A stretch of 64,000 nt of DNA. Source: Podarcis gaigeae (taxonomy: Eukaryota). Position numbers and translations under genes: made by a program. Where the stretch lies: the NCBI GenBank assembly GCA_964106915.2, contig OZ066920.1; one strand, written 5' to 3'. The notes beneath the pieces are model-generated. The model worked only from the letters and a program-made list of their open reading frames with translations, ran no database searches and was not told the DNA's origin. Below, piece after piece: positions 7,128 to 60,997 of the stretch. Position 1 is the first letter of the stretch. Each line of letters begins with the position of its first letter.

Positions 7128-7440
7128 AGGTAAAATGTAAAGGTAAAGGACTCCTGGATAGTTAAGTCCGTCAAACTTGACTATGGGGTTGCAGCGCTCA
7201 TCTCACTTCAGGCCAAGGAAGCCGGTGTTTGTCCACAGACAGATCCGGGTCATGTGGCCAGCAGGACTAAACCACTTCTGGTGGAATGGAACACCGTGAT
7301 GGAAGCCATGGAAACGCTGTTTACCTTCCCATTACAGCAGTACCTATTTATCTACTCGCACTGATATGCTTTCAAACTGCTACGTTGGCATGAACTGGAA
7401 CAGAACAACGGGAGCTCACCCCGTCACGGGGATTCGAACC
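7128..7440 (-). mobile_element. Sauria SINE, 5'-truncated at the B box
   Basis: (ACCTTT)n tail, Sauria SINE body, and GGTTCGAATCC B box on the minus strand. Confidence 0.9.
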
Positions 7441-13069: not shown

Positions 13070-16000
13070 CTTGATTAAATAATTTGCGATGCCACCATCA
13101 TCCCAAAACGGGTATGGTGCCTTCAAGGGACTTCTTCCTCCCTTATGGTGGAGCACCATATTACTCAAGACATGGAGCTGTTGCTGAAAATAGCATCCTT
13201 ATGTCAAGCTCTCCTCCTTTCCCAGATAAGCGGCACATGTTAAGGTTTTGTTATCATTTCAGGTATCCCCCGGTCCCCACCAGCAGCAGTTATGATGTGG
13301 AGGGGGAGGGGGAAATGGTACCTTGCAGTGACATCACATGAATTATCTGCTATATAAGGAGGGAGAGAAATCACATTGAAATCCCCCCCCCCCCCCGCGC
13401 CATAGCAGCCTCATGTTTTGCATAATGTGAAATTCTGTCCTTTAGTGAGAGGAGCAAAGGACTTTGCTTCTAACAGGTTTCTACATGTGGATCCCCTTGA
13501 TGAATGAGAAGACCCCTGCTCAGACTGGAGGTGTCTTCAGGACTACTCAGGATGTGGTGACAGAGACAGAGTGGGCAAAGATTTCCAGCCACATTGGAAG
13601 TGAGCATCCTGAAACAATGTCTTGATCAGTGTATGACTATATCTGGGTCAGGGCTGATGTGGGGGTTTTCAAAGCACTTTTAGAGATACTCCCCCCCCCC
13701 GCCCCCGCCAGCCAAGGAGCCTATCTCTGTGGGGGTAGCTTGGTGCTCATAGAAGCAGGGGATAACTGGAGATAAACAGGTGCTTTCTTCTTTTTAGAGG
13801 CACGTGAGGTCAGCTGTTAAGACACAGCAGAGGACAATAGGAGTTCTTTTGCCTTTCAGCCTTGCCTCCTGACCACCCAGTAGAGGAAAAATCCCTGCAG
13901 TTTCAGAGGTTTCGCACTGGAAAAAGTGGTGCGCAAACATTGTGTTTCCTGTGAGGTTACACATTGACTGAGAATGTTCAATTTGTTCACAGTAAATCAC
14001 TCTCTCGTGTTGCTTTTAAAAAATGACTTTCTGCCTCATTCTACACTCATTCAAGTTTAATTAATCTTCTAACAAGCTATCTGGGGTTTAAATTTGGAGG
14101 AAGAAGAGCCCTATGTTTTTCACTGGTGTTATGCTGTAAAGCACTGTACATTGGTGATACTATAGAAGTACAGCTTTAAGGTCAAGACATGGAAACCTAT
14201 ACAAAAATCAGCACAAATGCTTCTTATGTTGGTTTACATGAAAGGCAATTTCCCTGGTTTTCATTCCACATAACAGATCATTAGTAGCTTTAGTATTTAA
14301 GCACTCCATGCAGATCTGACCAGAAATCAGATACTCAGTGAACTGGAAGTTCTGGACCAAATATAAAAAGCTAACACAGAAGTCAGACCACTTGCACAAG
14401 TCCACTAGTGCAAACAGTTCACATGTTACATTTTAAACTGTGGTTAAGAAAATACCAGAAAGAAAATAGCAAAATATGGTAACAACTATCATAATACTCA
14501 CACGTAACCATTTACATAAATGTAAATGGTTGGGTTTCCCCAATTGTGGGTGGTGTACAGATACTTTCATTACTGTTGGTTCTGCATTATTGTGGAAGAA
14601 TGTGCCCATATCACACTGCAGTGGCATTTTTCATGAAAAACAGCATATAAATCTTTTAACGTAGGGAAAATATGTAAATGCACACATACCATTCATTCAC
14701 AAACAGGTGGCACTGTATGTGTACTTGGGACATTTACATTTTTAATACCCCAAAATCAATTCAGTTTTCTATATGTGAACCCTGTGTTTTTTATATAACC
14801 CTGTGTCCTCATGTATATGTATCTGTGGTAAGTTATTTTGCATATGTGGAAGCATTATATGTGAGGTATCTATAAAAGTCTGTGTGCATATATAAGCTAT
14901 TGTGTGGGTGTCTTTTATGTGCTGGCAATTACTGAGCAGGAGGGGGGTCCATTTGACACCCTACGCTGCATGTTTCACACCACATATGATGATTATTCCT
15001 CAGGAGAATTTTATCTGATTGCCATATAACCACCTCTGAAATCTCTTCGCTTTTTCAATGAAGCACGAAATAGGGCACTGCTGAAAACCCATTGCATTCC
15101 TATTCAGTATGGTAGACTTGCATTGAAAGTGTTTTCCATCCTACAGACATTTTTTTAGCACTAAACAAAGAAAAATTAACCGGAATCTTGAGGACTTAAA
15201 CCTGCAGTCTTATGCACATTTCATGAAATGTTCTGCAGAATGGGCCTGATCCAGCCCCAGGTAAACACTGTAAATGGCGGAGACTGTGTACTACTCACTC
15301 AAAATCGACAAAATTGATATTGCTTAATTTTGGCTGGAACACTAACTAAGCAATTTTAGTGGGGGATCTGGTTAAAACCTCTCTGTGACTCTTTCCATCT
15401 CTCTAAGAAAGCAAAGGAAATGGGAAGTAGCACAAATACGACAAGAAGCTGCAAATTTTTTCTTCTTTTTCTTTTACAGAATATAGTTCTCATTTCGGAG
15501 TGGGAAAATGAAACCTACATTTCAAAAAAAATAGGACAGGAACTTATGCAGCAAATAAATACAGTAAACATGAATGGAGACTTCTGTGAATAAAGCCAGG
15601 CCCAAAGTTAGCTGGACTCTCTGCAGCTGTGTTCTTATCTGGCCGAAGGAAGTAGAAGAACAACAAAAGAGGCTAAGAAGCCCTGGCTGATGCATGGGAA
15701 AGCCATTGGCCGGCAATTGTGGCTGCCCTTCTGCTGAGCAAATAGTTCAAACTGTTCACTCCCATCTCCCATTCTCTCCCTGGGACATTGTTTGTGTCCT
15801 TGCATTTCATTCTGCAAGGAAGATTGCTCTCTGGGCCTATAAGCAAACAGTCCAGAAAAAGAGCCAACTAGCTGCCTCTTTTCCCTGGAGAACTAGCATT
15901 TTTAGTCCCAGCTCCAAGCTGTCAATGAGCTGGAGAGTTAATGTCAGTATCCTGAATTAATTGCTTTAAGCTGCAGCAGCCAAAATGTGCGCCACCAAAT

Positions 16001-24664: not shown

Positions 24665-25214
24665 TATGTGGTGAACTGCCCTGTGATCATCAGATGAAGG
24701 GCATAATATAAATGTAATTGATTAATTAATTAATTAATTAATTAAACTTGCCAGGGCTGCAGGCCTTGAAGTTCCCTTCCTTCTTTAACCACAAGCATTG
24801 AACGGCACTCTTTCCCCCTCTCTGGCCATGCGTCTTGAGGAAACATGTCATCATAATATTATATAATACAGAGTAGTACCTTGGAGCAAGTAGAGAGTGC
24901 CTGTCCTTCACACTCGTAACAGAGGAGCAAAGCTTCCTTTTGGAGGTAGCAAGGTTCCCAAGAGGTCCTGTAACATCTCTCTTATTTAAAATGGAAAACT
25001 CCACTTGGTAGCCTTCTGCAAACACTGCCCAGATATTACAACTTTGGCTGCTGCTCTCATAGCACTGCGAAACATCATGTTGTTGCTCCATACCACAAGA
25101 CTTGCCAGGGAAGGCATGGACCCCAGGCAACTCACCTCTGTGGAACAGCCCCTCTCTGACATGACTGAAAGCAATTTATTTATTTAACAATATAAAAGCA
25201 CAATACATACCATA

Positions 25215-25565
25215 AAGGTAAAGAAACCCCTGACCATTAGGTCCAGTCGTGACCGACTCTGGGGTTGCAGCGCTCATCTCGCTTTACTGGCCGAGGGAGC
25301 CGGTGTACAGCTTCCAGGTCATGTGGCCAGCATGACTAAGCCGCTTCTGGCAAACCAGAGCAGTGCACGGAAACACCGTTTACCTTCCCGATGGAGCAGT
25401 ACCTGTTTATCTACTTGCACTTTGACGTGCTCTCGAACTGCTAGGTTGGCAGGAGCAGGGACTGAGCAACGGGAGCTCACCCTGTTGCGGGGATTCGAAC
25501 TGCCAACCTTCTGATCGGCAAGTCCTAGGCTCTGTGGTTTAACCCACAGCGCCACCCGCATCCCT
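25215..25565 (-). mobile_element. Sauria SINE, full length
   Basis: tRNA-derived head GGGATGCGGGTGGCGCTGTGGGTTAAACC, B box and (ACCTTT)n tail. TSD caatacat(a/c)ccata at 25201-25214 and 25566-25579. Confidence 0.95.
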
Positions 25566-26441: not shown

Positions 26442-26547
26442 CTGCACATAAAAATTAGCACTCCATGAATGAGCTTTGGCTTACTTGCTAGTTCTCTAAA
26501 CAGACCTGGGGGTTTTTATGGAGGAGTATTTATTTGTGTGAGACCTA

Positions 26548-26909
26548 AAGTAAAGGTAAAGGTACCCCTGCCCGTACGGGCCAGTCTTGACAGACTCTGG
26601 GGTTGTGCGCCCATCTCACTCAAGAGGCCAGGGGCCAGCGCTGTCCGGAGACACTTCCGGGTCACGTGGCCAGCGTGACATCGCTGCTCTGGCGAGCCAG
26701 AGCCGCACACGGAAACGCCGTTTACCTTCCCGCTGGTAAGCGGTCCCTATTTATCTACTTGCACCCGGAGGTGCTTTCGAACTGCTAGGTTGGCAGGCGC
26801 TGGGACCGAGCAGCGGGAGCGCACCCCGCCGCAGGGATTCGAACCGCCGACCTTTCGATCGGCAAGTCCTAGGCGCTGAGGCTTTAACCCACAGCGCCAC
26901 CTGTGTCCC
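26548..26909 (-). mobile_element. Sauria SINE, full length, young CpG-rich subfamily
   Basis: Perfect 14-bp TSD ttgtgtgagaccta at 26534-26547 and 26910-26923; A and B boxes intact. Confidence 0.95.
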
Positions 26910-26932
26910 TTGTGTGAGACCTACCTGTAGTA

Positions 26933-27323
26933 AAAAAAAAAAAAGTAAAGGTAAAGGACCCCTGGGTGGTTAAGTCCAGTCAAAGGCAACTATGGAGTTG
27001 TGGCGCTCATCTCGCTTTCAGGCTGAGGGAGCCACCATTTGTCCACAGACAGCTTTTTAGGTCATGTGGCCAGCAGGACTAAACTGCTTCTGGTGCAACG
27101 GGACACCGTGACGGAAACCAGAGCGCATGGAAACGCCGTTTACCTTTCTGTCACAGCAGTACCTATTTATCTACTTGTACTGGTGTGCTTTTGAACTGCT
27201 AGGTTGGCAGAAGCTGGGACAGAGCAACGGGAGCTCACTCCATCGTGGGGATTTGAACTGCTGACCTTCTGATCCGCAAGCCCTAGGCTCTGTGGTTTAG
27301 ACCACAGCGCCACCCACGTCCCC
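26933..27323 (-). mobile_element. Sauria SINE, full length, third subfamily
   Basis: TSD ctacct(g/a)tagta at 26921-26932 and 27326-27337; tRNA head and tail present. Confidence 0.93.
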
Positions 27324-28299: not shown

Positions 28300-28900
28300 T
28301 ATTTAAGCCCGTGCTTAAGTTTTCGCTCGTGTCATCCTTGGTGGAGCACGTTCGCGGATGTCAAGTCAGTTACTAATGAGCTAAACAATTGCGCCTAGCA
28401 ATTAGCCTCCCGGTAATTAAATCGCATTTATGGGATTAACGCCCCGCGGTTCGAAACAAAGCTGAGACATGATAGGGAAATGCGTGCGTCCCGAAGCCTC
28501 GGCTGGATCCGAATCGCCTCTTGTTTGCTTTGAAATCAGACAAAGGATGCGGACAAGAATGTCAATTTCCCGAGACGCCTCTCCTTTAAATGCCGCGCCG
28601 TTTCCAGCGAGGCCAAGCGCCGCTTTCGCCTCCTTCTCCTGCGACCAGATACCAGAGGCGATGGGGGGCAATAAACCGGGAGATCTCTGTTTTGCAGGCT
28701 ACTTATTACTTCTTCCGGCTGATAAAAACTTTTACTTTCCACTAATTTCACGGCGGGGACCGCGAGGGAGGCTGCGGGGGGAGGGGGCAAGAAATGTCAA
28801 CACAGAACTTCCCGGGAAGACGCGAAAGTTGATTCAAACGGAAAACGAGGAAGTTGGGATTGTGAGAAAGAAAACGGTTCCACTGTAGGAGGAAGAGCGA
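28300..28900. promoter_or_regulatory. Orphan CpG island with a homeodomain/SOX/FOX/TCF motif cluster
   Basis: CpG density rises abruptly here. Motifs: AACAAT 28384, TAATTA 28414, GGATTA 28433, TGTTTGC 28522, CTTTGAA 28528. Confidence 0.45.
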
Positions 28901-32060: not shown

Positions 32061-32264
32061 GGCTCCTTCCACCCTGTTACTGATTAGAGAAAATGATTTC
32101 AGAACATCTTCTAGCTATTTCCCAACCTTATATTACAGATTAGAGTGAAAAAACAATAGTAATGAGCAGTTAACTTCTCCTGGGTGAACATGGTTTTCAG
32201 CTATAAGATTTTAATTGTGGTTGATCCTCTTTTTGAACAGAAAGTGGAAAAGAACCATTTGTTT

Positions 32265-32480
32265 TATTAATCATTACATTTATATCCCATCCTTTTCTCT
32301 ATGGAGCTCAAGATGGCATACATGATTCTCACCATCCTCTTTGAACACCCACAACAACCACCATGAGAGGTAGATTAGGCTGGGAGGCAGGGACTGGCCC
32401 AAGGTCTCCCCATGAGCTTCATGGTCGAGTAAGGATTTGAACTCTGGTCTCACAGGTCTCCAACATTCTAACAACTACAT
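32265..32480 (-). mobile_element. Same SINE family as 50751-50972
   Basis: Reverse-complement similarity over ~210 bp. Confidence 0.7.
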
Positions 32481-34394: not shown

Positions 34395-34572
34395 CAGGGG
34401 TGCCAACTTGAATAAATAAATTAGCGGGGGCAGGTAAGCTCCATCCCGCATAATTGATCACATAATTATGCACACGCACACTATTTGAATGGCAATGCCA
34501 ATCAACTGGGGGGAGCGGGCCCCTCAAATATTTTATTGGGGGGGCTGGGTCTTCATAGGAATTGGCTCCTAT
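34395..34572. mobile_element. Old hAT-like MITE (related copies at ~5640-5748 and ~60803-60997)
   Basis: The copies share gccaacttga...gatcaca...atttgaatggca.tgcc.atcaact.ggggga...ctcaaatattt...gaattggctcctat. Confidence 0.65.
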
Positions 34573-37215: not shown

Positions 37216-40200
37216 TGGAACTAGAGCAGGTTTCATTCACCGAGTCGCGATTAGAGAAGGATGAGAGTCTTTTGTAAGGTTGCATAGGACGGAGGCCAAG
37301 AAAGGATAGCATCGCAATTCTCCCTTCTTCTTGGGGCTTCATGGAAGTGAGGTGCTGGAAAGAGTGGGGCTGTCCTCCTGAACTACAGCCCCCACTCCCT
37401 GCCTACTCCTAGGGGCCGAGGTCCCTTGCTCCCCCAGTAGGCGACAGTCCCATGGGAAGACCCTGGAAAGCGCCTGCCGGTGGTGCGAGTAAGTGAACTC
37501 GATCAACCCTTAGTACAAGACAGGTTCATACGTTCATGATCTTTCCGAAAACCATACTATGGAGCGCTTGGAAGGAAGGAGATGAATCTCTTGAATCACC
37601 CCCATGAAGTGTTCAGACCTGCTCCAACTAGCCTAAGGGTGTCACACTTTTAGATCTCGCAACGACCTGCTTCAGCGTTCAGCAAACAGTACCTGCGTGC
37701 AATCCTATGCATGTTTACTCAGTGATTAATCTCATTGGCTTTGATTGGGTAAGGGCTTGATTAAGAACCCTTACCCCAAAACGTTGTGGAGTTTTTTTGC
37801 CTTCTGCTCAGGGTTGCAGATGGCTGGCTACTGAACCGGCTAGCGCCTGCTATTTACTCCGAAGCAGACTAATTGACTTTGCATCAGACGTCACTTTGAA
37901 ATGAATAGCTTTGCGCGTTGGCGCTTAGCAGGCCCTCTATTATAAAGTTACGCAGACTTACATTACTTTAAAAGATTCAATCAAAACATTTATTTCCTCA
38001 ATAAATATCTGAACTACAATAACGGTAGTAGTTATAATAGCCCACCAAATATAAGAATTGTTAAGGCTGTAATACTATGCACACTTACTTGAGAGTAAAT
38101 CCCAATTGATCTCACTGGAGTTTACCTTCCAGTAACCATGCGTGTCCAGTTTATTATAACCTTGTGTCCAACTCTTATATAATTGTATCAAATAGACTGA
38201 AGATGCTTGTTTTGGGGTGGGATGTGGCCTTCAGCATCTAAACTGCAATCTTGTGCACACAAACCTGAGGGTAAACGTCATGGGACTCTGTGAAGCTTAC
38301 TTCGAAGTAGATTGTTGGTCATAATCTGGTTTGTCCTGCGAGGCAAAACTCACTTGGCTTCAGGAATTTGTGTCAGATCCACATTTGTGGATTATCTTCT
38401 CCCCACCAGCCGAATTTCGAATTCTAGTGAAAGTCAGCCAGATAGGGGCTGATGTTTTTTCGGAAACAAATCCCGCTGAGATCCTACAAGTCTATAGGAT
38501 TGCTGCCGGTATTGTTTGTATATACCAAATATGGTATGAAACCTACAGAAAGATGGAATGGGTTTCACACACCTAGGAGCTAAAGCATAACTTCGAAGCG
38601 ATCCATTGATTTCCACGAAACATTCTTCCCTATTAACTTGCTTAAAGTCTCCCAGAAAGGCGAAGGCCCCGCGCAGGTGGAAGAGAAAGTGAGGGACAGC
38701 AGAGCCGAAGCTGGATCTAGAACGCAAATGAATGAGTGGATTATTCATTCTGAACTGCATTGTTAATTAAGGCTTCCAACTTAAACATACTTTACCAGAA
38801 ATTAAGCCCCACTGAACGGCTCCTGCATGCGACTCAGTCCACAAATCTGGACTGATGCTGCGGCCACAGACTACATAATATTTCATCGTAATCGTGTGTG
38901 AGGATGCCAACCCTTCAGCGGGCATCTGTACCTGCACTTTTAACAGCAGTTCCGTCTGCAGCAAATTGAGATGAATTCCTCTCACCTCCACGAAAGAGGG
39001 TTGCAGATCAAGCCGCTGTTAGAGGCACAGCAACCAGATCTGATTGCAAAGTTGGCTGCCATTTATATATGAGATTAATTTTGCTCTAAATAATTCTTGT
39101 TCTTTGGGTGCTTGTTTGGCAAGGCCTATTCCCTGCTGGTAGGAGAATTGCTTCCCTTCTGAATTTTAGCTTTTCAAAGATTTGGGGAAAGCAATTAGAA
39201 TGAAAAAGTCAGGACAGACAATCATGGCTTTGAGTGCAAATTAACCCAGCGCCTCCACCTTTAAAAATGGTATCAAATTGCACATGGCCCTTGATTTATT
39301 GTCTCTAGCCTGGGGTTTTTTAATGCATAGCTTACTATGTTTTAATTTTGCACCTGTTTGTTTGGGGGTCTAGAGGTCTTAATGCTGGAATGCAAACTTT
39401 TTATTTTATTTTCGTCTTCTATCATACCAAACTGACAAAGCGAACTGGCAAGAAGTATCAGTGAAATGAAATTGCTTTTTTGGTATTGATAAGGATTAAG
39501 CAATTGGAGGGAGCGAATAGGTATTTTCATTATTTACTTTCTAAAACATATGAATTTCTATGTTTTTATTGCCAATTTTGCTAAAAATAGTAAAAAAAAT
39601 CCTTTAAAAAAATCCTCGTAGCGAGTTCAGTATCATGTAGGCATGTAAAGTATAACTGCTGAAACCAGTTGGCCTTACTTCCGAGTAAGAGTAGGAAGGA
39701 TCAGACTTCAAAGCTAGCTGACCACTTGCTTCAGTGGGATATGAAGGATTCCTAAACCTGGACTGGATAGCAGGGTGCGAACCTACATACACTTCCCAAA
39801 CAGTAAGTCAATGCGGCTTACTTGCAAGTAGACATGGGTAGGCTCGCACTATTGCAATACACTCGTATGCATATCTACTGAGAAGTAAAGGAGAATTAAG
39901 TTCAATTAGACTTACTCTCAGGTATATGCGTATAAAACCAGCTTTACAACGCAGCTCTATTTATCTGTTCAAAAGAAAGGCCGATAATTTAGTCTGCCAA
40001 ATAAGTCTGCTTACACCAGTTGCCATGTACACTAACTCAGGAGTCAGTCTCACTTTGTTCAAGGGCGCGTATCCATTTATTTTACTAATTAGATACATCC
40101 AAATGAATTATTATATTTTCACTACACACGCGCGCGCGCACACACACACATTAGTAGCAAACTGCTCAAGCCCTTCTCAATTGACAGAACAAGAATAAGG

Positions 40201-40399
40201 CTATCAAAAGAAAAATTCTCGCTTCGTTCATATAATAAAATAACAGAGCAAGGAACCATAAATCACCGAACGACATATCTCCCCGTTTAATTTTTACTTT
40301 TTCGAAGGTTAGACGTTGCCGAGGTAGTTAAACTGTGGGGGGAACCCCTTTTCTTTCCGCCCACCCAACCCACAATTATCCGGCTTCCTTCTATGAAGT

Positions 40400-40630
40400 T
40401 TCTAGATTAATATCGGTGGAGCGAAAGGCGAGAGAATTCCCCGCTTGAACGGCAGGATTAGAAATATTTCTAGAAGAAAGAAGAGGGTGTGAATTGACTT
40501 TAGCCTGCAATCGTCTAAAGCGGAATTACAGCTTGTAAAATAGGTCTCCATCAGTCTCCCGGGAGACGGGCTCAGTTCGACTTGGGTGTTCCAGCTCCTT
40601 CTTACCCCTCGCAATAATTAGCTCCATCTC
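40400..40630. promoter_or_regulatory. Candidate FOXA2 floor-plate (Shh-responsive) enhancer with a Gli site
   Basis: Minus-strand GGAACACCCAAGT at 40580-40592, core GAACACCCA at 40583-40591. Flanked by TAATTA (40615-40620) and GGATTA (40455-40460), in non-repetitive DNA 3' of the gene. Confidence 0.7.
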
Positions 40631-43600
40631 GGTCCCAAGCGTGTGTCTTCCCCACCCCCACACCAGTGTTTCCTTATCCCCAATAAATGTTGTTGCTGTT
40701 TTGCCCGGCCCCCAAGTCCAAGAAACTTCTGGGGCACCCAAGGGACTTGCCCTGTTTACGAAAGGGTGGCGGCAAAAGATGCAAGATGCGAAAAGGAAGA
40801 AGGTTTTGGGTGCCCAACTCAGAGCTTGCGGCCGCCCTTGGGGGCTGGTGGGTTTGCCTTTAAGAAAGGAGAGAAGGGAGGGGGCGAAAGTGAGGAGTGT
40901 GACTTTCTTATCAAAGTGCGGGAAATGTCATTTTCTTTGTGCTTTGATGTCTGGTTGTCTTTCAGCCCATCCTTGCATGTCATTACCAGACTCCCAACAG
41001 AGAAAGAGGTGTGGGGCTTTTTTTGGTTTGGTTTTGTTTTGATGGGAAGTAAAGAAAAGAGTTGGTGGGGGGAGGAGAAGACGAGGATAAAATAGGGATG
41101 CACAATTAGATGATTTCTGCCCTTCTATTACAGCGGTGAATGGCAGAATTCTTGACAGAGTAGCGAACCGGCGGGTCTATTCTTAACTGGTTGAGTTAAC
41201 ATATACGGGTGTAAAGCGCCAGGGGCGGGCGGGCGGGCGGGCGGGTGAGGTTTCTTGTTATTTCCCCCCTCAGGTCTTTTTCCTTTAGAGAAAGTCGAGT
41301 TCTGAAGCAATTTCATCCGTTAAAAAAAGGAAAGGAAAGGGGAAATAGTCTGTTAGATCAATATTGAAGCAATGTTGCATGAAACCAAGTCAGGATTAGT
41401 CCAGGGAGCCACGTTGTTTCTGTGGGTCCAATTCAGCCACCCCAAATCCCAAAATATTGCTAGTCTCGCAGATTTCCAAAGAACTAAATCCCCTCCAGTT
41501 GGGTGCAAGTTTACCCGATCAAAACCGTGATGAATTTCAGTTCAGATCAGTGGAGCTGACTCCTCAGTTAGGACACTTGCTTGGGAGTAAACTCGGTTGA
41601 GCATAGAGGAGTCTACGTCTGCGTAAGCATGCATAGTATGGGGCTGCAAAGCTGCAGTCCTTCTTCACCCACTAACCTGCGACTATTGACCTCAAGAGGC
41701 ATTGCATTTTTGAGTCCATATGCTTACCTGGGGCTAAGCCCAATTCCACGGGGTTTCCTCCTGAGTAAACACGCATCAGTAGAGGCTGCGTGTCAGTTCG
41801 ACTTCTCTTTCCAGAAAAGGTTTTAAATGTTCGAGACTGCAAAGCTGCCTAGCTAATCCCCTGACAGCCGAGCTTTCTGTATACATGGCATTAAAACACA
41901 TTGAGGCAGCGCAGCCGCAACGCTCTTTTCTCCTTCAGGATTAATAGGTGTTCTGGACACTTGGACTTAGGGTGAGATGTGTTGAAAAGGAAATAAGACT
42001 CATAAACCTCTATGAAAGTTTGAATCGCTGGATAATGAAGAGAACAGGACTCCTGCACCTTCAGTTGCTCCACAGAAAAGGGAAATTTACTAACTATAGG
42101 TTGCATGATAAACCATAGCAGCTGAAATGTCCTCTCTCATGCAGCAATTAAAGGGCACGAGCGCTGCCTTCTTGGTTCACCTGACCATTCTTATTACTAG
42201 GGAAGTGCATCCCACTGAAATCCATCTAACTTGCCTCGAAAAAACTGCGTTTCCCATCTGGGGTGCGTCTTTTGTGATTCAGGGAACTCCTTCTTTGCCA
42301 AAATCTTCCGCCACCTTACGGTGCCGCGCCGGGTCCTCAAAAGGAGATTCCTAGGGGTGTGTGTGCTGTGGGGGTTTGGGGTTACCCTGAACTGTTCATC
42401 GAGGAAAGTCTCCAGGCAGTTAAAGAGGGTCAAACGCTGCTTACACTTGTGCCACCTAAACAGAGAAGAGCAGGAGGCCGAGGGGCATCGGCCGGGAGAT
42501 GGACAAGGAGGGGAGTCCTGAGGACGGAATGGACTAAACTGCCCTAAGGAGGGAGGCGGTAGCTTTCCGCTTTATAGACAATGCTGGACACGGTTGCCAT
42601 AGCGGCGGCCAGGACGCCTCAGCGTATGGATGCTTCTTAACGCAGCAACAAGGGCGCAGGGGGGCACCGAGGAGGAGCGGGGCCGGGGACGCAGAGGGGA
42701 GTCGGGGGGCCTCGTCCTCCTATCCCATCTACGGTTAGCTAGACGAAAAAAGGCGCAGCGCGCTTTCTGGGTCTTGGTTGATCCACGTCGCCTTTGCAAC
42801 TAAGCGCCCTCCGCCTCTGGAATGCAGCGTCGGATTGTTCCTTTGGTGGATGGAATGGAAACGTTTCTTTACAATCAGCCTAGACGTTCCCACCCCCTTC
42901 CTTGTTCTACCCCCCTTGCAAAATGCTGCCTTGCGAGCTCTTAACCCTCATTGTATGTCTTCTGTGCCTGTCTTGCCCCTCCTAGGCGCGCCTCGCGCCT
43001 CTCGCCTCTAAATTTAGGACAGGGTTCAACTAAAGATAGGCTCCCGGATCCATCTTCTACCACAGCAGGAGATATTTGAGAGATCTGGTTCTCTTTGGCT
43101 TGAATGGGGCAGAGGCGCAGCATCCGGTACTTGTAGGCCCCCTGGCTATCTCCGCCGCCCCCCACCAAAAATGCTCTAAACTGACCTCTTGAAGCCTCCG
43201 TGCTTACAAGTGCTTACCTTTGGCTTGGAAGTAAAATTGGGGGGAGGGGAATGAAATTTAGATGGTAAACTCCTTGGGGCGGGGACCTAATCCCCTTTGC
43301 TTATGTGACTCTCGGCTATGTGACTCTTGGTCGCCATCACATTATGGCGTAAGGGTTAAAAGGACGTGAGGGGGGGTGCCGAACCACAGTTTGCTTTAGT
43401 TCCCTCCAGAACTAGAGGGGATTTCTAAAATGAATAGCTCTGTGGTGTCTTCTGCCTTGACAGCTCTGCCTACTCCACCTCACGCGCCAATCCTCGGTAT
43501 GCTAGATGCTGGTTGTGATTATTCAGTTCCTAGAAAAAACAGCACTCTGAACATACCCAGAAGTGATGTGAGCATGTTCCAGAGCGGAGCCGTGAGACTG

Positions 43601-50750: not shown

Positions 50751-50972
50751 CGTTTGGAGTGTGAGTGCCTTGGACGATGGCCTGGGAGACCAGGGCCAGA
50801 ATCCTACTCAGCCGTGAAGCTCCCTGGGGGACCTTGGGCCAGCCACTCCCACTCAGCCTAACCTGCCTCACAGGGTTGCTGTGTGGCCAAAGGGGGGGGG
50901 GGGAGCCATGCTCACCACCTTGAGCTCCTTGGAGGACAAGGTGGCATATGAATGTAGTAAATAATAATAAAT
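50751..50972 (+). mobile_element. tRNA/CORE-type SINE with an L2-like tail (Squam3/MIR-like)
   Basis: ctgggagaccagggccagaatcc...accttgggccag...cagcctaacctgcctcacagggttgctgtg...gagctccttggag...(AAT)n. Confidence 0.75.
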
Positions 50973-52816
50973 AAGAAACGAAGTTTTGTTTGACTTCCGT
51001 TGGCCAGGTAATCTTCTCTACCTGAGTCTAGTTGGAAACCTTAGGATTCAACCGAGGTTAGTTCCCATGAACTGACCATGAACCCTACACCTGCTTCTTG
51101 GGAAGGATGCCCCGCTTATTCCAAGTGGATCGATTCCCCATCCAGTGAGCCTTCGCTGGAAGCCGTCCCTCTCCTAACCAGGCTCAGTGCTGCGTCTTTG
51201 AGGTCCTGCTAAGCTATGCCCTCGAAAGGCCAACACAAAAACCCCCTTCCTAGGGGGGAACGAGCATCAAATGTCTTCCTTCCGGATGAGCCTTCTGAGC
51301 AATGGCGCGCTGCAGCCTGGCTAGAGGTGCGGCACAACGCGTAGCTCGCGTACTCAGAAGTAAGTCCTCCGCAATTCAATAGGTCTTACTTCCAAGTAAG
51401 TATCATAAGATATTCAAAAGCCATTGAAGACCTTACTCCTGAGTAAAATGTGCATAAGGTGACGCGCATCAGTTTCACTGAAAATCAGTGAAATTCTTAC
51501 AATACTCCGAAGTTAAACTTACCGTTTTCAACTGTTTTCAGGATCGGTGTGAAAGGGAAGAATATAGTTGGCTGGTTCGAGATCCACCCCCGTCCACCAC
51601 AGGACTGCGCGATAGTGCTTGTAGTCAGTCGAGAAAATCCACTCTGGAGTTTCATTTGGACTCGGCAAGCGAAGGGAAGCTCGTAACTCCCCTTCGCCTT
51701 CTGACCAGCTCCTGCCACAGGCAAGGCCTCTCGTGTGTATGTGTTGTCACTGTTGCGTGTGTGTTGTGCGCAGATTTCTGCATGAGCAAGATGGGGACTG
51801 ATTGGAATCCCATTTACTCATCCCGGTTCTCGCGTCGCTAAGAGTCTCCAAAGAGGAGCCCCGACGTTTATCCAAAGACGACTTAGAGGAAGAAGACAGG
51901 CCTTCTCAGTGAATACGGCTCTGGAGGGCGGACAGAAGAGGAGGAATATAGGAGCATCGAGCTTTCAAACAACTTCCGAATTGCCCAGCATTAGGTTAAA
52001 GCCGTCCTTCTTGCTAACTGCGTTTCAAGTAAGCTAGAACCCAAATCTTTAAAGAAAAAGAAGCTAGAATTCATCTAACCAATTTGTTTTAAAAGTCCCG
52101 AAACTCTTAACCCAACTAGGCGTGTTTTGGTTTCCACTAGGCGCTTGAGGCTTCGCGCGCTTTCTCTGATGCAGAGAAAGGTTCTAGCAAGCCACACTCA
52201 GTTCATTATGAAAGGCAAGAGTAGTCTCGGTTGATGATAGTCAACGTTCCTCGTACTCAAGAGTAGACCCACTGAAACCAATGGTTTATGCTTTTCAAGC
52301 CGCCACCTCCCGCTTGGAGTATCATAATGTGGCTTTAATAGTAGTTGTACTTCAGGATTGCTATATTGGCTGCGATTGTGTGGAACGCGAGGCTGAATAG
52401 CAGGTACAGTCAAAGATGAAGCACTTTTAAGGCCGGAGATTGAATGAGATATGCGGTTAACATTATAAGTGAAATCAATGAGTCATAAAAATACTTTGGC
52501 TGAATACTGTGCTGTTATGTAAATGATTCCACCATTATCATGATGCCCAGATGTCGAGAATACCCCTTTTAACAGAGGTTGCAATCCTAGTCATGGACGG
52601 GAGTCAGCGGGGATGTCTAGGCAAGTATAACTCGTGGGAGCCTACCCGATTGCAAATGTGTAAGGTAACCGATGGGCTTTCCTATCAAGTAATGTTCACA
52701 GGATCAAATAAACAAAGCAATATTTAAAGTCAAGCAGGCAAAGCAATCATATACATACATAGAATAGGCAGCATCTATATATATAGGCCTCGACTAAGAG
52801 CCTAACAACCCAGTAA

Positions 52817-52878
52817 CAGAATCATAGCATTGCAGAGTTGGAAGGGACCACGTGGGTCATCTAATCCAATCTCTGCCA
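52817..52878 (-). mobile_element. Short CR1 3'-tail fragment
   Basis: agaatcatagcattgcagagttggaagggacc...ggtcatctaatcc. Confidence 0.65.
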
Positions 52879-53529
52879 ACAAGAAAGACCCTATTTTCAG
52901 TCCGACTTGTCCTAGGACTTCCATGGGCTGCAACTCAGGGAGTTGGCAGACTTTAGGCTTTTCTGATCTATTTTGCTTTTTACTAGAATCCCAAGATCTA
53001 TCAACCAGATTCTAGTGCCTCTGAGCCCATTCCGGGCCTAGGAGTTGGTCTGCAGTATCAGAACTGAGCTCACAACCCCAAAACAACCCCCCAACCCCCT
53101 TCATTTCAGCAGTTTACTTTGGACGAAGCAGGAAGTAATTTTGCTAAACAGTTGGGAGTCTGAAACCAAACTGCTTGTGAATCTAGTGCATGTCAGGCAA
53201 AGATTTACCATAGATTCAGCTCTGTCTTTACTTGAGAATAAAGTGTATATTTGGGAGTAAGGTTGCAGTCTTATTCACAGTTTAGACGAGGAATGGTAAG
53301 CGTGCCAACAAGATTTGATGATGTATGAAACATGATACTCCAAGTTCATATGTGCATTTTAAATACGCATGTTATTCATACAGGCCATCTTGGAGAGGGC
53401 CTACTCTAAGCACAGTAAGCCCATTGGCAAGCAATATCAAGAGCTAAAATTAGTTCGTTATCTTTCCCGCATCTCTTTGCATTATACTAGAAAATAACAG
53501 ACAGGTATTATTGTTTAAGTTAAGAAAGG

Positions 53530-54462
53530 GGGAAAAAATCTCCAACAGCAATTTAATATATGGTTTGTGAGAATTTGGTCGGTCCTTACCAGAATACACA
53601 TCTATAAACCATAAATAAAGCGTACAAAAACGATAAATTAATTCGATCGGAGTCGTTTACTCTCCCGGTAACATCAAAACTTCCTGTGTCAAATTACAAT
53701 CTAAAGTCCATTTTTGGGTACCCCCCTCCCCCGAGTTCATACAGCCTTTTTGATCCTCAGTTTTGAAATCTAACACCGGTTCACACACACACTTATTTCT
53801 GTGTCACTTTCACACCCAAAAATAGATATATTTATAACTCCCCGCAACAAACAAAATAAAGAAACAGACAAGGAGACTCCTAAAAGGAAACCTCCAACTC
53901 AAATAAAATTTAAATCGGTGTCTGAAGAAAAGTGACGGTGGTCAAGAGCCGAAGCCCACGGAACTGGATGTTTTCCACGCCCCACGGTTGTTGGAGATCA
54001 ATCCTGTTTTCCCGACGCCGGCGAGAAAAGAGTAGAAGAAAAATGAGCTTTAAATTACACAACAGCAAACGTCGATTGAATATTACGGGAGCCTTTTCTA
54101 AACTAGGAGCGGGGCGCGAAGTCCAGGATTCTTTGCCAAAAGTGGTGCGCGGGAGAGATGGGGTCAGTGCGCTCCTCATAGAAAGTTCTCTTTTTCATTT
54201 AAAAAATAGGGCTAGAGAATCTTTAGTTGATACAAAGGCGCCGGAGCTCCCAGGTAGTGGGTGGAGGCCACCGGATTGTTTTAGTCCGATGGGCTTTGGA
54301 TATGGATTGGGATCGGGAGGCGACGCCGTGGAATAAACTGACCTGGCTTTGGATTCTTTCCAAAGTCTACATCATATCTCAAATCTCCTCCTGCCCAGAG
54401 AAGTCTCGGGTTTGTCCTGGGGAGAGAAAGAGGGCATTGGCCCTTGGGGGGTGGGATGCCCT
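53530..54462 (-). other. FOXA2: FOXA2 3'UTR (distal end approximate)
   Basis: Follows the stop codon, is AU-rich in its distal part, and ends near a candidate ATTAAA. Confidence 0.6.
53552..53557 (-). terminator. Candidate FOXA2 polyadenylation signal ATTAAA
   Basis: The minus strand reads ccatatATTAAAttgctgttggagattttttcccccttt, with a GU/U-rich downstream element. Confidence 0.55.
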
Positions 54463-55746
54463 TTAGGAAGAGTTCATGATGGGCCTGGGGTAGACCCCTT
54501 GGTAATAGGAGGCGTCTCCGGCCAAGGGCGAGGTCTCCAGGGCGCTTTTGTTCGTGACGGAGCCCATGGCCAGGCTGCCGGGCACCGGCGAGCCGTAGCT
54601 GCTGTAGTGCATCACCTGCTCATAGGCTTTGAGGTCCATTTTGTGGTGCGGGTGGTGCGGGTGGTGCGGGTGGGGGTGGTGCTGGTGCGGATGGTGCGGA
54701 TGGTGGGGGTGCTGCTGCTGCTGCTGCTGCTCTGTGGAGGACATCAGGTTGGTGATGGAGAAGGGGTGGTTGAAGGCGTAATGGTGCTCCGCCTTGAGGT
54801 GCGCCTCGTGGGAGAGCCCCGCGTGGGCGTGATGCTGCGCCAGCAGGTGCTGCTGCTGCGCCGGCGACGGGGCAGGCTCCGGGTGGCCCTTCAGGTCGGC
54901 CAGGGCGCGCTTGTGCTCGTGGCAAGGGGAGGCGCTGGAGTGCGGCGATTCCGGAGCCCCGTTGGGCAGGTCGCGTTCCTGCGGCGCCTGCGAGGCCGCC
55001 TTCTTACCTTGCGACGGGGCTCCCGCCGACGAGGCAGGCGAGGCGCCCTGATTCTGCTGCTGCTGCTGCTGTTTGGAGCCCAGCGGCTTGTCGCACTTGA
55101 AGCGCTTCTGGCGCCGCAGGTAGCAGCCGTTCTCGAACATGTTGCCCGAGTCCGGGTGCAGAGTCCAGAAGGAGCCTTTGCCCGGCTTGTCCGGCGAGCG
55201 CGGNNNNNNNNNNNNNNNNNNNNNNNNNNNNNNNNNNNNNNNNNNNNNNNNNNNNNNNNNNNNNNNNNNNNNNNNNNNNNNNNNNNNNNNNNNNNNNNNN
55301 NNNNNNNNNNNNNNNNNNNNNNNNNNNNNNNNNNNNNNNNNNNNNNNNNNNGCCATGGTGATGAGGGAGATGTACGAGTAAGGCGGCTTGGCGTGCGTGT
55401 AGCTCCGGCGATAGCTCTTGGCGTCGCGGGAGCGGCCCAGGCCCGCCGCTTGTCCGTACGCGCCGCTGCCGCCGGCCCCGACGGGACTCAGCGCCGAGTA
55501 AGCGCCCAGCGCGCCCCCCATCGAGCCGGCCTGCGCGCCCAGCGGGCTCAGGCTGGGGCTCAGGTGCGCTGCCATGCTGGCCATGGCCCCCGCGCCGGGA
55601 GAGAGGTTCATGCCCGCCGGGCCGGCCGCGTAAGACATGCCCATGGAGCCGCCGGACGCCACCGTCGTCATGTTGCCCGCCGTGCCCATGGCTGGCATGC
55701 TCATGTAGCTGTTCATGCCCAGCCCCGCGTTCATGGTGGAGTAACC
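54463..55746 (-). CDS. FOXA2: FOXA2 last coding exon: forkhead domain (partly N-masked), eh1/region II, C-terminal region III, TAA stop
   Basis: The acceptor tttgcag|GGT at 55747/55746 is in frame with the previous exon. The ORF has [19 protein letters not shown]...[60 protein letters not shown] and [14 protein letters not shown]. The GSFW forkhead variant and the C-terminus indicate FOXA2 rather than FOXA1 or FOXA3. Confidence 0.97.
55204..55351. other. 148-nt run of N inside the forkhead-coding sequence
   Basis: Seen directly; the reading frame is preserved across it. Confidence 0.99.
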
Positions 55747-56633
55747 CTGCAAAGGCGACAAGAGCGGGGAGCCCAGCGGTTAGAGGAGGTGGCCCACCTG
55801 TCTCCCACCCGAGACCCACAACTCCCTGGCCACGGGATGGTGGGCAACCCAGCCCTCAGCCCCAACCACCGCATATTTCGAGGGAGCTTTCTTTGGTGTA
55901 ACGGTCTCCTTCGGAGTCTGTGTGATACAATGGAAGGTGAAAGTACCCAGCGCCCCAGTGAACATGGTGCAGGCACTCTTGGCCCCTTGAATTTAAATGG
56001 AAGGCTACAGCAGGTGCTTGAATCTGGGGGGCAGTTAAATTGAAACCGGTCAGATTTACATCCGAGTAAACACGGTCCGGAAGCTGTACGCCGGCTCCCT
56101 GGCCAATAAAGCGAGATGAGCGCCGCAACCCCAGAGTCGGTCACGACTAGACCTAGTAGTCAGGGGTCGCTTTATCTTTACCTTAAACACGGGAGAGAAT
56201 CGGCTTGTAAATCTCGCCAAATACAATTTAAAAAGTGGCAGGGGGAGCGCCTAACTTAGACTCGATCGTGTCTATGGTTAGGATAGGGGTCCAAGCATTG
56301 CAAACTTGGATACCAAATGCGCTAAGCTGATACAGGTCTCAGTGAAATCGATGACATACAAAACAACAACAACAACAACAGGACAAAGTCGACCAGTCTG
56401 GTCATAACAGTATTCCTGCACCCTCATTTTAAAAATTCCCGTTGGCTTTAATGAGCCTTTGCCCAAGTAACGTGTTTCTTATTGCGATGGAAGAAAAGTA
56501 GGACCCAGGTGGGTGTTTAAAATATTTCCTTGTTCGTTGGCCGGGGAATTGTTCCTGTTAAAACCCAAATGCTAATGCAAATCTACCAGAAAGCAAGCCC
56601 GCTCTCTACCGCACACACTTTCCGGGTCTAACC

Positions 56634-57650: not shown

Positions 57651-57737
57651 CTCCGGCTCGCCGTAGTAGTTGCTCCACTCCGTGTGCTCGTGTCCTTCCA
57701 TTTTCACGACTCCTAGCATACTGGAAGCGGAGTGCAT
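57651..57737 (-). CDS. FOXA2: FOXA2 first coding exon ([29 protein letters not shown]); ATG at 57737, alternative in-frame ATG at 57719
   Basis: My translation of the reverse complement matches the FOXA2 N-terminus (mammalian [23 protein letters not shown]). The exon is 87 nt and ends at a phase-0 donor GAG|GTAAAT (GT at 57650-57649). Confidence 0.95.
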
Positions 57738-60802: not shown

Positions 60803-60997
60803 TAAAGGATACCAACTTGACTAAAACATTGGGAGGACGCGACGGCAGGTAAGTCCCGCCCTGCCTAACCGATCACAAGACTCGGCGCAAGTACACCATT
60901 TGAATGGCAGTGCCCATCAACTTGGGGGAGGACGGCCACCTCAAATATTTAAGGGGGGGCTGAAGGAACGTCGACCCCCTAGGAATTGGCTCCTATG
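60803..60997. mobile_element. Old hAT-like MITE, same family as 34395-34572
   Basis: Colinear similarity with the 34.4-kb copy. Confidence 0.65.

Follow-up and report, generated by a model that had tools for sequence, protein, structure and literature searches.

The DNA analyzed here, which we call the window, is a stretch of 64,000 nucleotides from the lizard Podarcis gaigeae (contig OZ066920.1 of assembly GCA_964106915.2). On its minus strand the window contains a gene that, judged by protein homology, is the FOXA2 of a lacertid lizard and not FOXA1 or FOXA3. An open reading frame at 54463-55779 bears HNF_C and Forkhead_N domains in Pfam, and this frame, its domains, and its homology place the second coding exon of FOXA2, including the stop codon, at 54463..55746. 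A search with the C-terminal 225 amino acids of the protein gave, among the matches listed (120 of 428), 97% identity to HNF3-beta from Podarcis raffonei versus ~40% identity to FOXA1 proteins and 55% for the mouse match. Apart from these, the named proteins among the best 16 of the 428 matches came from squamates with 61-81% identity, being either FOXA2 or an unassigned forkhead protein. The first coding exon is predicted at 57651..57737 on the same strand and comprises 29 codons followed by a GT donor. Joining the two exons in a GT-AG model (57737-57651, 55746-54463) yields a protein of 456 amino acids, which is the length of the P. raffonei protein. Over the full length of this two-exon FOXA2 the identity is 88%, since some of its coding sequence is unread here. 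An earlier reading of the same DNA, the first-pass annotation, had also named this gene FOXA2. The C-terminal half of the protein contains a His/Pro/Gln tandem tract (54643-54727, minus strand), and a Gln run is found further upstream in the same exon. The ATTAAA at 53552..53557 is a candidate poly(A) signal, as it is the sole AATAAA or ATTAAA on this strand in 52500-54470.

On the same strand as FOXA2 and 3' of it is a 13-mer, GGAACACCCAAGT, at 40580..40592. The first-pass annotation had reported this word and its position, and we found it as a single copy in the 64 kb, where a base-composition model expects 0.0017 copies. It includes the 9-base Gli-binding core GAACACCCA (40583..40591, minus strand), a 3A variant of GACCACCCA that is listed as a functional HNF3-beta site in Table 1 of PMC2830928 (this paper and those below are cited from the passages of them that were available). 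The site is 13,871 bp beyond the FOXA2 stop codon and 12,960 bp beyond the candidate poly(A) signal, and the ATG of the presumed target gene is 17,145 bp away. Thus, the first-pass placement of the site ~13 kb past the 3' end of FOXA2 was right.

The 9-base core occurs twice in the window (32343 on the plus strand and 40583 on the minus strand) and at least two copies were reached by 17 of 100 shuffles. Likewise, the 64-kb window contains 17 near-consensus Gli 9-mers with at most one mismatch when 14.6 are expected. Because both counts are at the level of chance, the core alone is no evidence, and we dropped motif counts as support for a Gli site. The core copy at 32343-32351 (plus strand) was rejected as the orthologue; it shares none of the four flank bases, has a CpG observed/expected ratio (o/e) of 0.05, and belongs to a dispersed repeat, whose copy at 32264-32456 is 71.5% similar to 50781-50967. 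The sole perfect consensus Gli 9-mer of the window is at 13871-13879 (plus strand) in CpG-poor DNA ~40 kb 3' of FOXA2 and has a TAATTA within 200 bp. Near the main site there is a second one-mismatch Gli-like 9-mer, a 2C variant at 40359..40367 (plus strand), ~215 bp away and in the opposite orientation. PMC2830928 includes a 2C variant from another gene in its list of functional sites, and the floor-plate enhancer of mouse Foxa2 is said to contain several Gli sites (PMC10266736). The density of such 9-mers is that of chance, and the one at 40359 could be a chance occurrence.

The first-pass annotation had also described the DNA around the site as unique and CpG-rich. We found no second match to 40000-41200 within the 64-kb window, and CpG o/e was 0.89 in 40400-40630 versus 0.46 for the window. 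This ratio is raised over most of ~24-61.5 kb (24000-61500), a domain of ~37 kb around and 3' of FOXA2 that ends in sharp drops on both sides. Therefore, CpG richness does not single out the element; the description stands as a measurement but it is a property of the 37-kb domain, and we dropped it as specific evidence. The domain is presumably akin to the large stretches of low methylation found at developmental genes. A transposon-derived or coding origin of the element is not indicated by its single copy in the window or by family searches. Rfam gave no match around the element, and Pfam gave none above the cut-off for three open reading frames that overlap it (one sub-threshold match, E 0.096) or for six chance open reading frames. 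A search of a plasmid collection returned three chance matches (E 7) and no reporter vector. Elsewhere in the window, dispersed repeats of ~300 bp with 73-90% identity occur at 7132-7439, 25213-25565, 26546-27322, and 56079-56185, the last within the FOXA2 intron; this family is probably a SINE. A 150-bp pair with 73.5% identity (34429-34572 and 60844-60996) flanks FOXA2, with both members inside the CpG-rich domain.

To compare the lizard site with mouse, we used the 50-nt FoxA2 enhancer fragment of Tg(GBS-GFP) that is printed in PMC3267043. The comparison was made by eye, with the gap placed by hand, and was confined to lizard and mouse. Positions 24-36 of the mouse fragment are identical to 40592-40580 at 13 of 13 bases. 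The upstream flank (40595..40617, minus strand) matches mouse positions 1-23 at 16 of 23 bases without an internal gap. This match needs a 2-nt offset (40593-40594), and without it 5 of 23 bases agree by eye. In total, 29 of 36 bases are identical with one 2-nt gap. The mouse flanks had been given in the first-pass annotation, and they are correct as compared with PMC3267043 and with the shorter unit in PMC6041257. That annotation had named an absence of flanking conservation with the mouse enhancer as evidence against its reading; over these 50 nt of mouse sequence, compared by eye, conservation is present upstream of the core and weak downstream.

The upstream match is rare by several measures. 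Its binomial probability is 4.9e-5 from base counts and 3.4e-4 when seven offsets are allowed, and 16 of 23 was reached in 48 of 2,000,000 permutations. Among natural 23-mers of the window, 2 of 127,876 matched the lizard flank at 16 or more positions, as did 1 of 25,851 when the 23-mers were purine-matched. The four bases flanking the core also match mouse exactly (p 0.0034 given the core, 0.0068 for two cores). By contrast with these, the downstream flank (40565..40579, minus strand) is weakly similar to mouse. Without gaps 5 of 14 bases match; one gap raises this to 6 and three gaps to 11. As the last figure was reached only with three gaps, we did not count the downstream flank as evidence.

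The lizard core has one substitution, at position 3, and has both critical positions, 4 and 6, intact. In PMC2830928, positions 4 and 6 of the Gli site are described as critical and position 14 as raising affinity, and on the GACC strand of its consensus oligo both position 11 and position 14 are G; the "C" in the text of that paper would refer to the other strand. The G at extended positions 11 and 14 (40578 is position 14) is shared by lizard and mouse, which differ at position 13. We dropped the two Gs as a distinguishing mark of the site because both are present in 4 of the 17 near-consensus sites. The first-pass annotation held that the lizard had kept a low-affinity variant and not the consensus. 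The non-consensus base is indeed there, but low affinity is not established, since many single substitutions activate like the consensus (PMC2830928) and G11 and G14 are kept. Genes expressed near the Hh source tend toward higher-affinity sites according to PMC4197706, of which the available passages do not mention Foxa2, whereas the review PMC4151135 gives the opposite rule.

Homeodomain-type motifs had been noted near the Gli site, and we found both of them. The palindrome TAATTA (40615..40620), which we take to be a LIM-HD-type motif, is 23 bp from the core, and GGATTA (40455..40460, plus strand), which we take to be a K50/Otx-type motif, is 122 bp from it. For comparison, a TAATTA is found within 35 bp at ~2% of positions and a GGATTA within 130 bp at ~11%, and GGATTA is present in 22% of the 500-bp tiles of the CpG domain. 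A candidate autoregulatory site, TGTTTAC at 40753..40759 (plus strand), lies ~160 bp gene-ward; this is presumably the FoxA consensus and is found in 19% of 500-bp tiles. A TTTATTG at 40681-40687 (minus strand), ~90 bp gene-ward of the Gli site, is in our view a Cdx/posterior Hox-type word, and a second such word is near 40262. TAATTA, GGATTA, and the FoxA motif all occur within 200 bp of the Gli site at 40583, of none of the 16 other Gli-like sites, and of 11 of 6,200 other sampled positions, where the trio was picked post hoc after a scan of ~16 motifs. Read on the minus strand, TAATTA aligns with mouse through its last three bases, which are opposite the first three of the fragment. The mouse fragment thus begins partway through the lizard hexamer, and only this part of it is comparable. 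This and the post hoc choice of the trio make it a lead only. The sole other area with the three motifs within 200 bp of one point is 28330-28560, a CpG-rich, motif-dense stretch with several TAAT words ~26 kb 3' of FOXA2 that is a candidate second conserved enhancer.

SOX2 input has been described for neural Gli enhancers (PMC4151135, PMC7614300). The Sox patterns WWCAAW and ACAAWG are absent from 40300-40800, where the sole partial Sox word is an ACAAT at 40372; this word occurs in 52% of tiles. Local matches were likewise absent for two TEAD patterns and for TCF, Nkx2, GATA, E-box, and TATA patterns.

The mouse enhancer spans about +6 to +11.5 kb. By these distances it is probably nearer its gene than the lizard site, which is 17.1 kb from the ATG. 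The title of Sasaki 1997 reportedly states that the Gli site is essential for the mouse Foxa2 enhancer in transgenics and responds to Shh. That the mouse floor-plate enhancer is 3' of Foxa2, as the first-pass annotation said, is stated in PMC4617976; the orientation of the mouse Gli site relative to Foxa2 was not found in the passages of the literature examined.

The identical 13-base match, the rare upstream flank, and the location of the mouse enhancer, which is also 3' of its gene, make orthology very likely. We conclude with high confidence that 40565-40620 corresponds, as its lizard orthologue, to the Gli-binding core of the 3' floor-plate enhancer of Foxa2. The first-pass annotation had proposed this, and the comparison by eye backs it more strongly than had been argued. 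Against it count the short mouse sequence of 50 nt, the downstream flank, which aligns with mouse only through several gaps, and the distance: the lizard site, 13 kb behind its gene, is apparently farther away than the mouse enhancer, whose overlapping Lhx1 peak is next to the start of 9030622O22Rik, a locus presumably a few kb behind Foxa2.

Orthology together with conserved Shh-dependent floor-plate activity is probable as well, with the activity predicted from sequence. In mouse, Foxa2 is targeted directly by Shh in the prospective floor plate and goes on to repress Gli2 (PMC5831764), and activating GLI is required chiefly for FOXA2 induction (PMC7614300). In the lizard, Shh from the notochord would raise Gli activator in ventral midline cells, and this activator would bind the core together with extended positions 11 and 14. 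Activity may be confined to the midline by partner factors that occupy TAATTA and the conserved upstream flank. The element would then contact the FOXA2 promoter ~17 kb away and turn the gene on, after which FOXA2 may feed back through the FoxA site at 40753. Conservation is no guarantee of such activity given that, in zebrafish, two of six conserved elements 3' of foxa2 were active, both in the forebrain, with no floor-plate activity reported in the available passages of PMC3210094. The human floor-plate enhancer code is described as RFX, FOX, and TEAD, and Gli does not feature in the available part of that work (bioRxiv 2026.01.14.699402); this code is probably that of cells in which FOXA2 is already on. 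Also counting against the reading are the absence of a full Sox motif from 40300-40800 and the induction of FOXA2 without Shh in organoids (bioRxiv 2023.06.25.546258).

We considered whether the sequence is a true orthologue with its main job elsewhere. It could serve axial mesendoderm, endoderm, or midbrain through its homeodomain and FoxA sites, or form part of the promoter of a downstream lncRNA, the Gli input being minor or used in another tissue. In mouse, Lhx1, a factor that complexes with Otx2 and Foxa2, occupies a site that partly overlaps the floor-plate enhancer (PMC4617976). The Lhx1 peak (chr2:147865794-147867311) is 613 bp from the 9030622O22Rik start in the supplement of PMC4617976. 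The rarity of the motif trio in the sampled positions and the induction of FOXA2 in Shh-null neural organoids (bioRxiv 2023.06.25.546258) point the same way. However, the Gli core itself is the best conserved part, the trio emerged from a scan of many motifs, and the sheet of all peaks is the only one to show the Lhx1 peak, which is not among the high-confidence chromosome 2 rows listed (PMC4617976). For an lncRNA promoter, no TATA box is present in 40250-40850. We consider a main function elsewhere unlikely.

Mammals and reptiles split ~320 million years ago. An element that was inherited but is now decaying, with FOXA2 in the lizard floor plate driven by another element, would be consistent with the seven mismatches among 23 upstream bases and the downstream gaps, as well as with other motif-dense, CpG-rich stretches 3' of FOXA2 such as ~28330-28560. 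Neutral survival of a perfect 13-mer and of 29 of 36 identical bases since that split is not expected, making decay quite improbable. A chance match, that is, a Gli-like word that merely sits near FOXA2, fits the chance-level counts of 9-mers and near-consensus sites and a mouse comparison made by eye, but we regard it as highly improbable given how seldom the 13-mer is expected, an independent upstream flank with p ~1e-4 to 3e-4 after offsets, and a location on the right side of the right gene.

The preferred reading, a conserved Shh-responsive floor-plate element, leaves a lead in the upstream flank. This flank is conserved, abuts TAATTA, and is inside the fragment of an in vivo Hedgehog reporter. 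Its 23 bases running into TAATTA are a candidate for an unrecognised cofactor footprint. Together with GGATTA and the FoxA site they might form a Gli-Lhx1/Otx2/FoxA2 composite that couples midline identity to Shh, in which selectivity, and not weakness, would be the reason for keeping the non-consensus base. Since the 50-nt unit of Tg(GBS-GFP) includes the upstream flank, that reporter would, if the composite exists, be partly a cofactor sensor. We offer this proposal tentatively and think it rather doubtful.

The literature searched, which was not reptile-specific and included few subscription papers, contained no description of this element in any reptile. Oosterveen 2012 reportedly picked elements for their conservation and assayed them in chick, so conservation across amniotes may well be on record. 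The lizard copy is very probably expected biology, a known enhancer kept across mammals and reptiles. If so, the Shh-Gli-FOXA2 link through this site would predate the split of the mammal-reptile ancestor, with the non-consensus base preserved, as specialists would expect. The lizard copy can also serve as a phylogenetic footprint, in which the bases under constraint around the Hedgehog reporter site would be the upstream flank, G11, and G14.

Sasaki and Hogan 1996 and Sasaki et al. 1997 reportedly described the floor-plate enhancer of mouse Foxa2 (HNF-3beta) together with its Gli site. The lizard element shares with it the whole 13-mer including the 3A core, 16 of the 23 upstream bases, G11 and G14, and a position 3' of the orthologous gene. 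It differs in the 2-nt insertion upstream of the core, the base at position 13, the gapped downstream flank, and a probably greater distance from the gene. Gli/Sox2 neural-tube enhancers are said to be the subject of Peterson 2012 and Oosterveen 2012. Those of Nkx2.2, Olig2, and related genes (PMC4151135, PMC4197706, PMC7614300) resemble the lizard element in combining a Gli site with nearby cofactor motifs at a ventral neural-tube gene. They have a different target gene and a Sox motif, of which 40300-40800 has no full copy.

Reporters with eight Gli sites derive from the mouse site or from its repeat unit. Tg(GBS-GFP) (PMC3267043) and the GliBS oligo (PMC6041257) carry the same 13-mer as the lizard, and Gli-d:mCherry (PMC3006388) has the same origin, its sequence not being given in the available passages. 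As the first-pass annotation said, the mouse site has been multimerised in a Hedgehog reporter, and eight copies report Shh signalling in vivo (PMC3267043); the eight-copy Gli-d:mCherry in zebrafish also tracks Shh signalling (PMC3006388). These constructs differ from the lizard element in being artificial multimers. The 50-nt unit of Tg(GBS-GFP) holds the whole upstream flank, whereas the short oligo in PMC6041257 holds only its last 7-8 bases. Finally, the Shh enhancers SFPE1 and SFPE2 are, like the lizard element, floor-plate enhancers with conserved sequence, and their activity is conserved too, with SFPE1 working in chick (bioRxiv 2026.01.14.699402). They act downstream of FOXA2 and are driven through FOX, RFX, and TEAD sites (PMC10266736, bioRxiv 2026.01.14.699402). 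The lizard element lacks local matches to two TEAD patterns and, unlike SFPE1 and SFPE2, would act upstream of FOXA2 by reading Gli.
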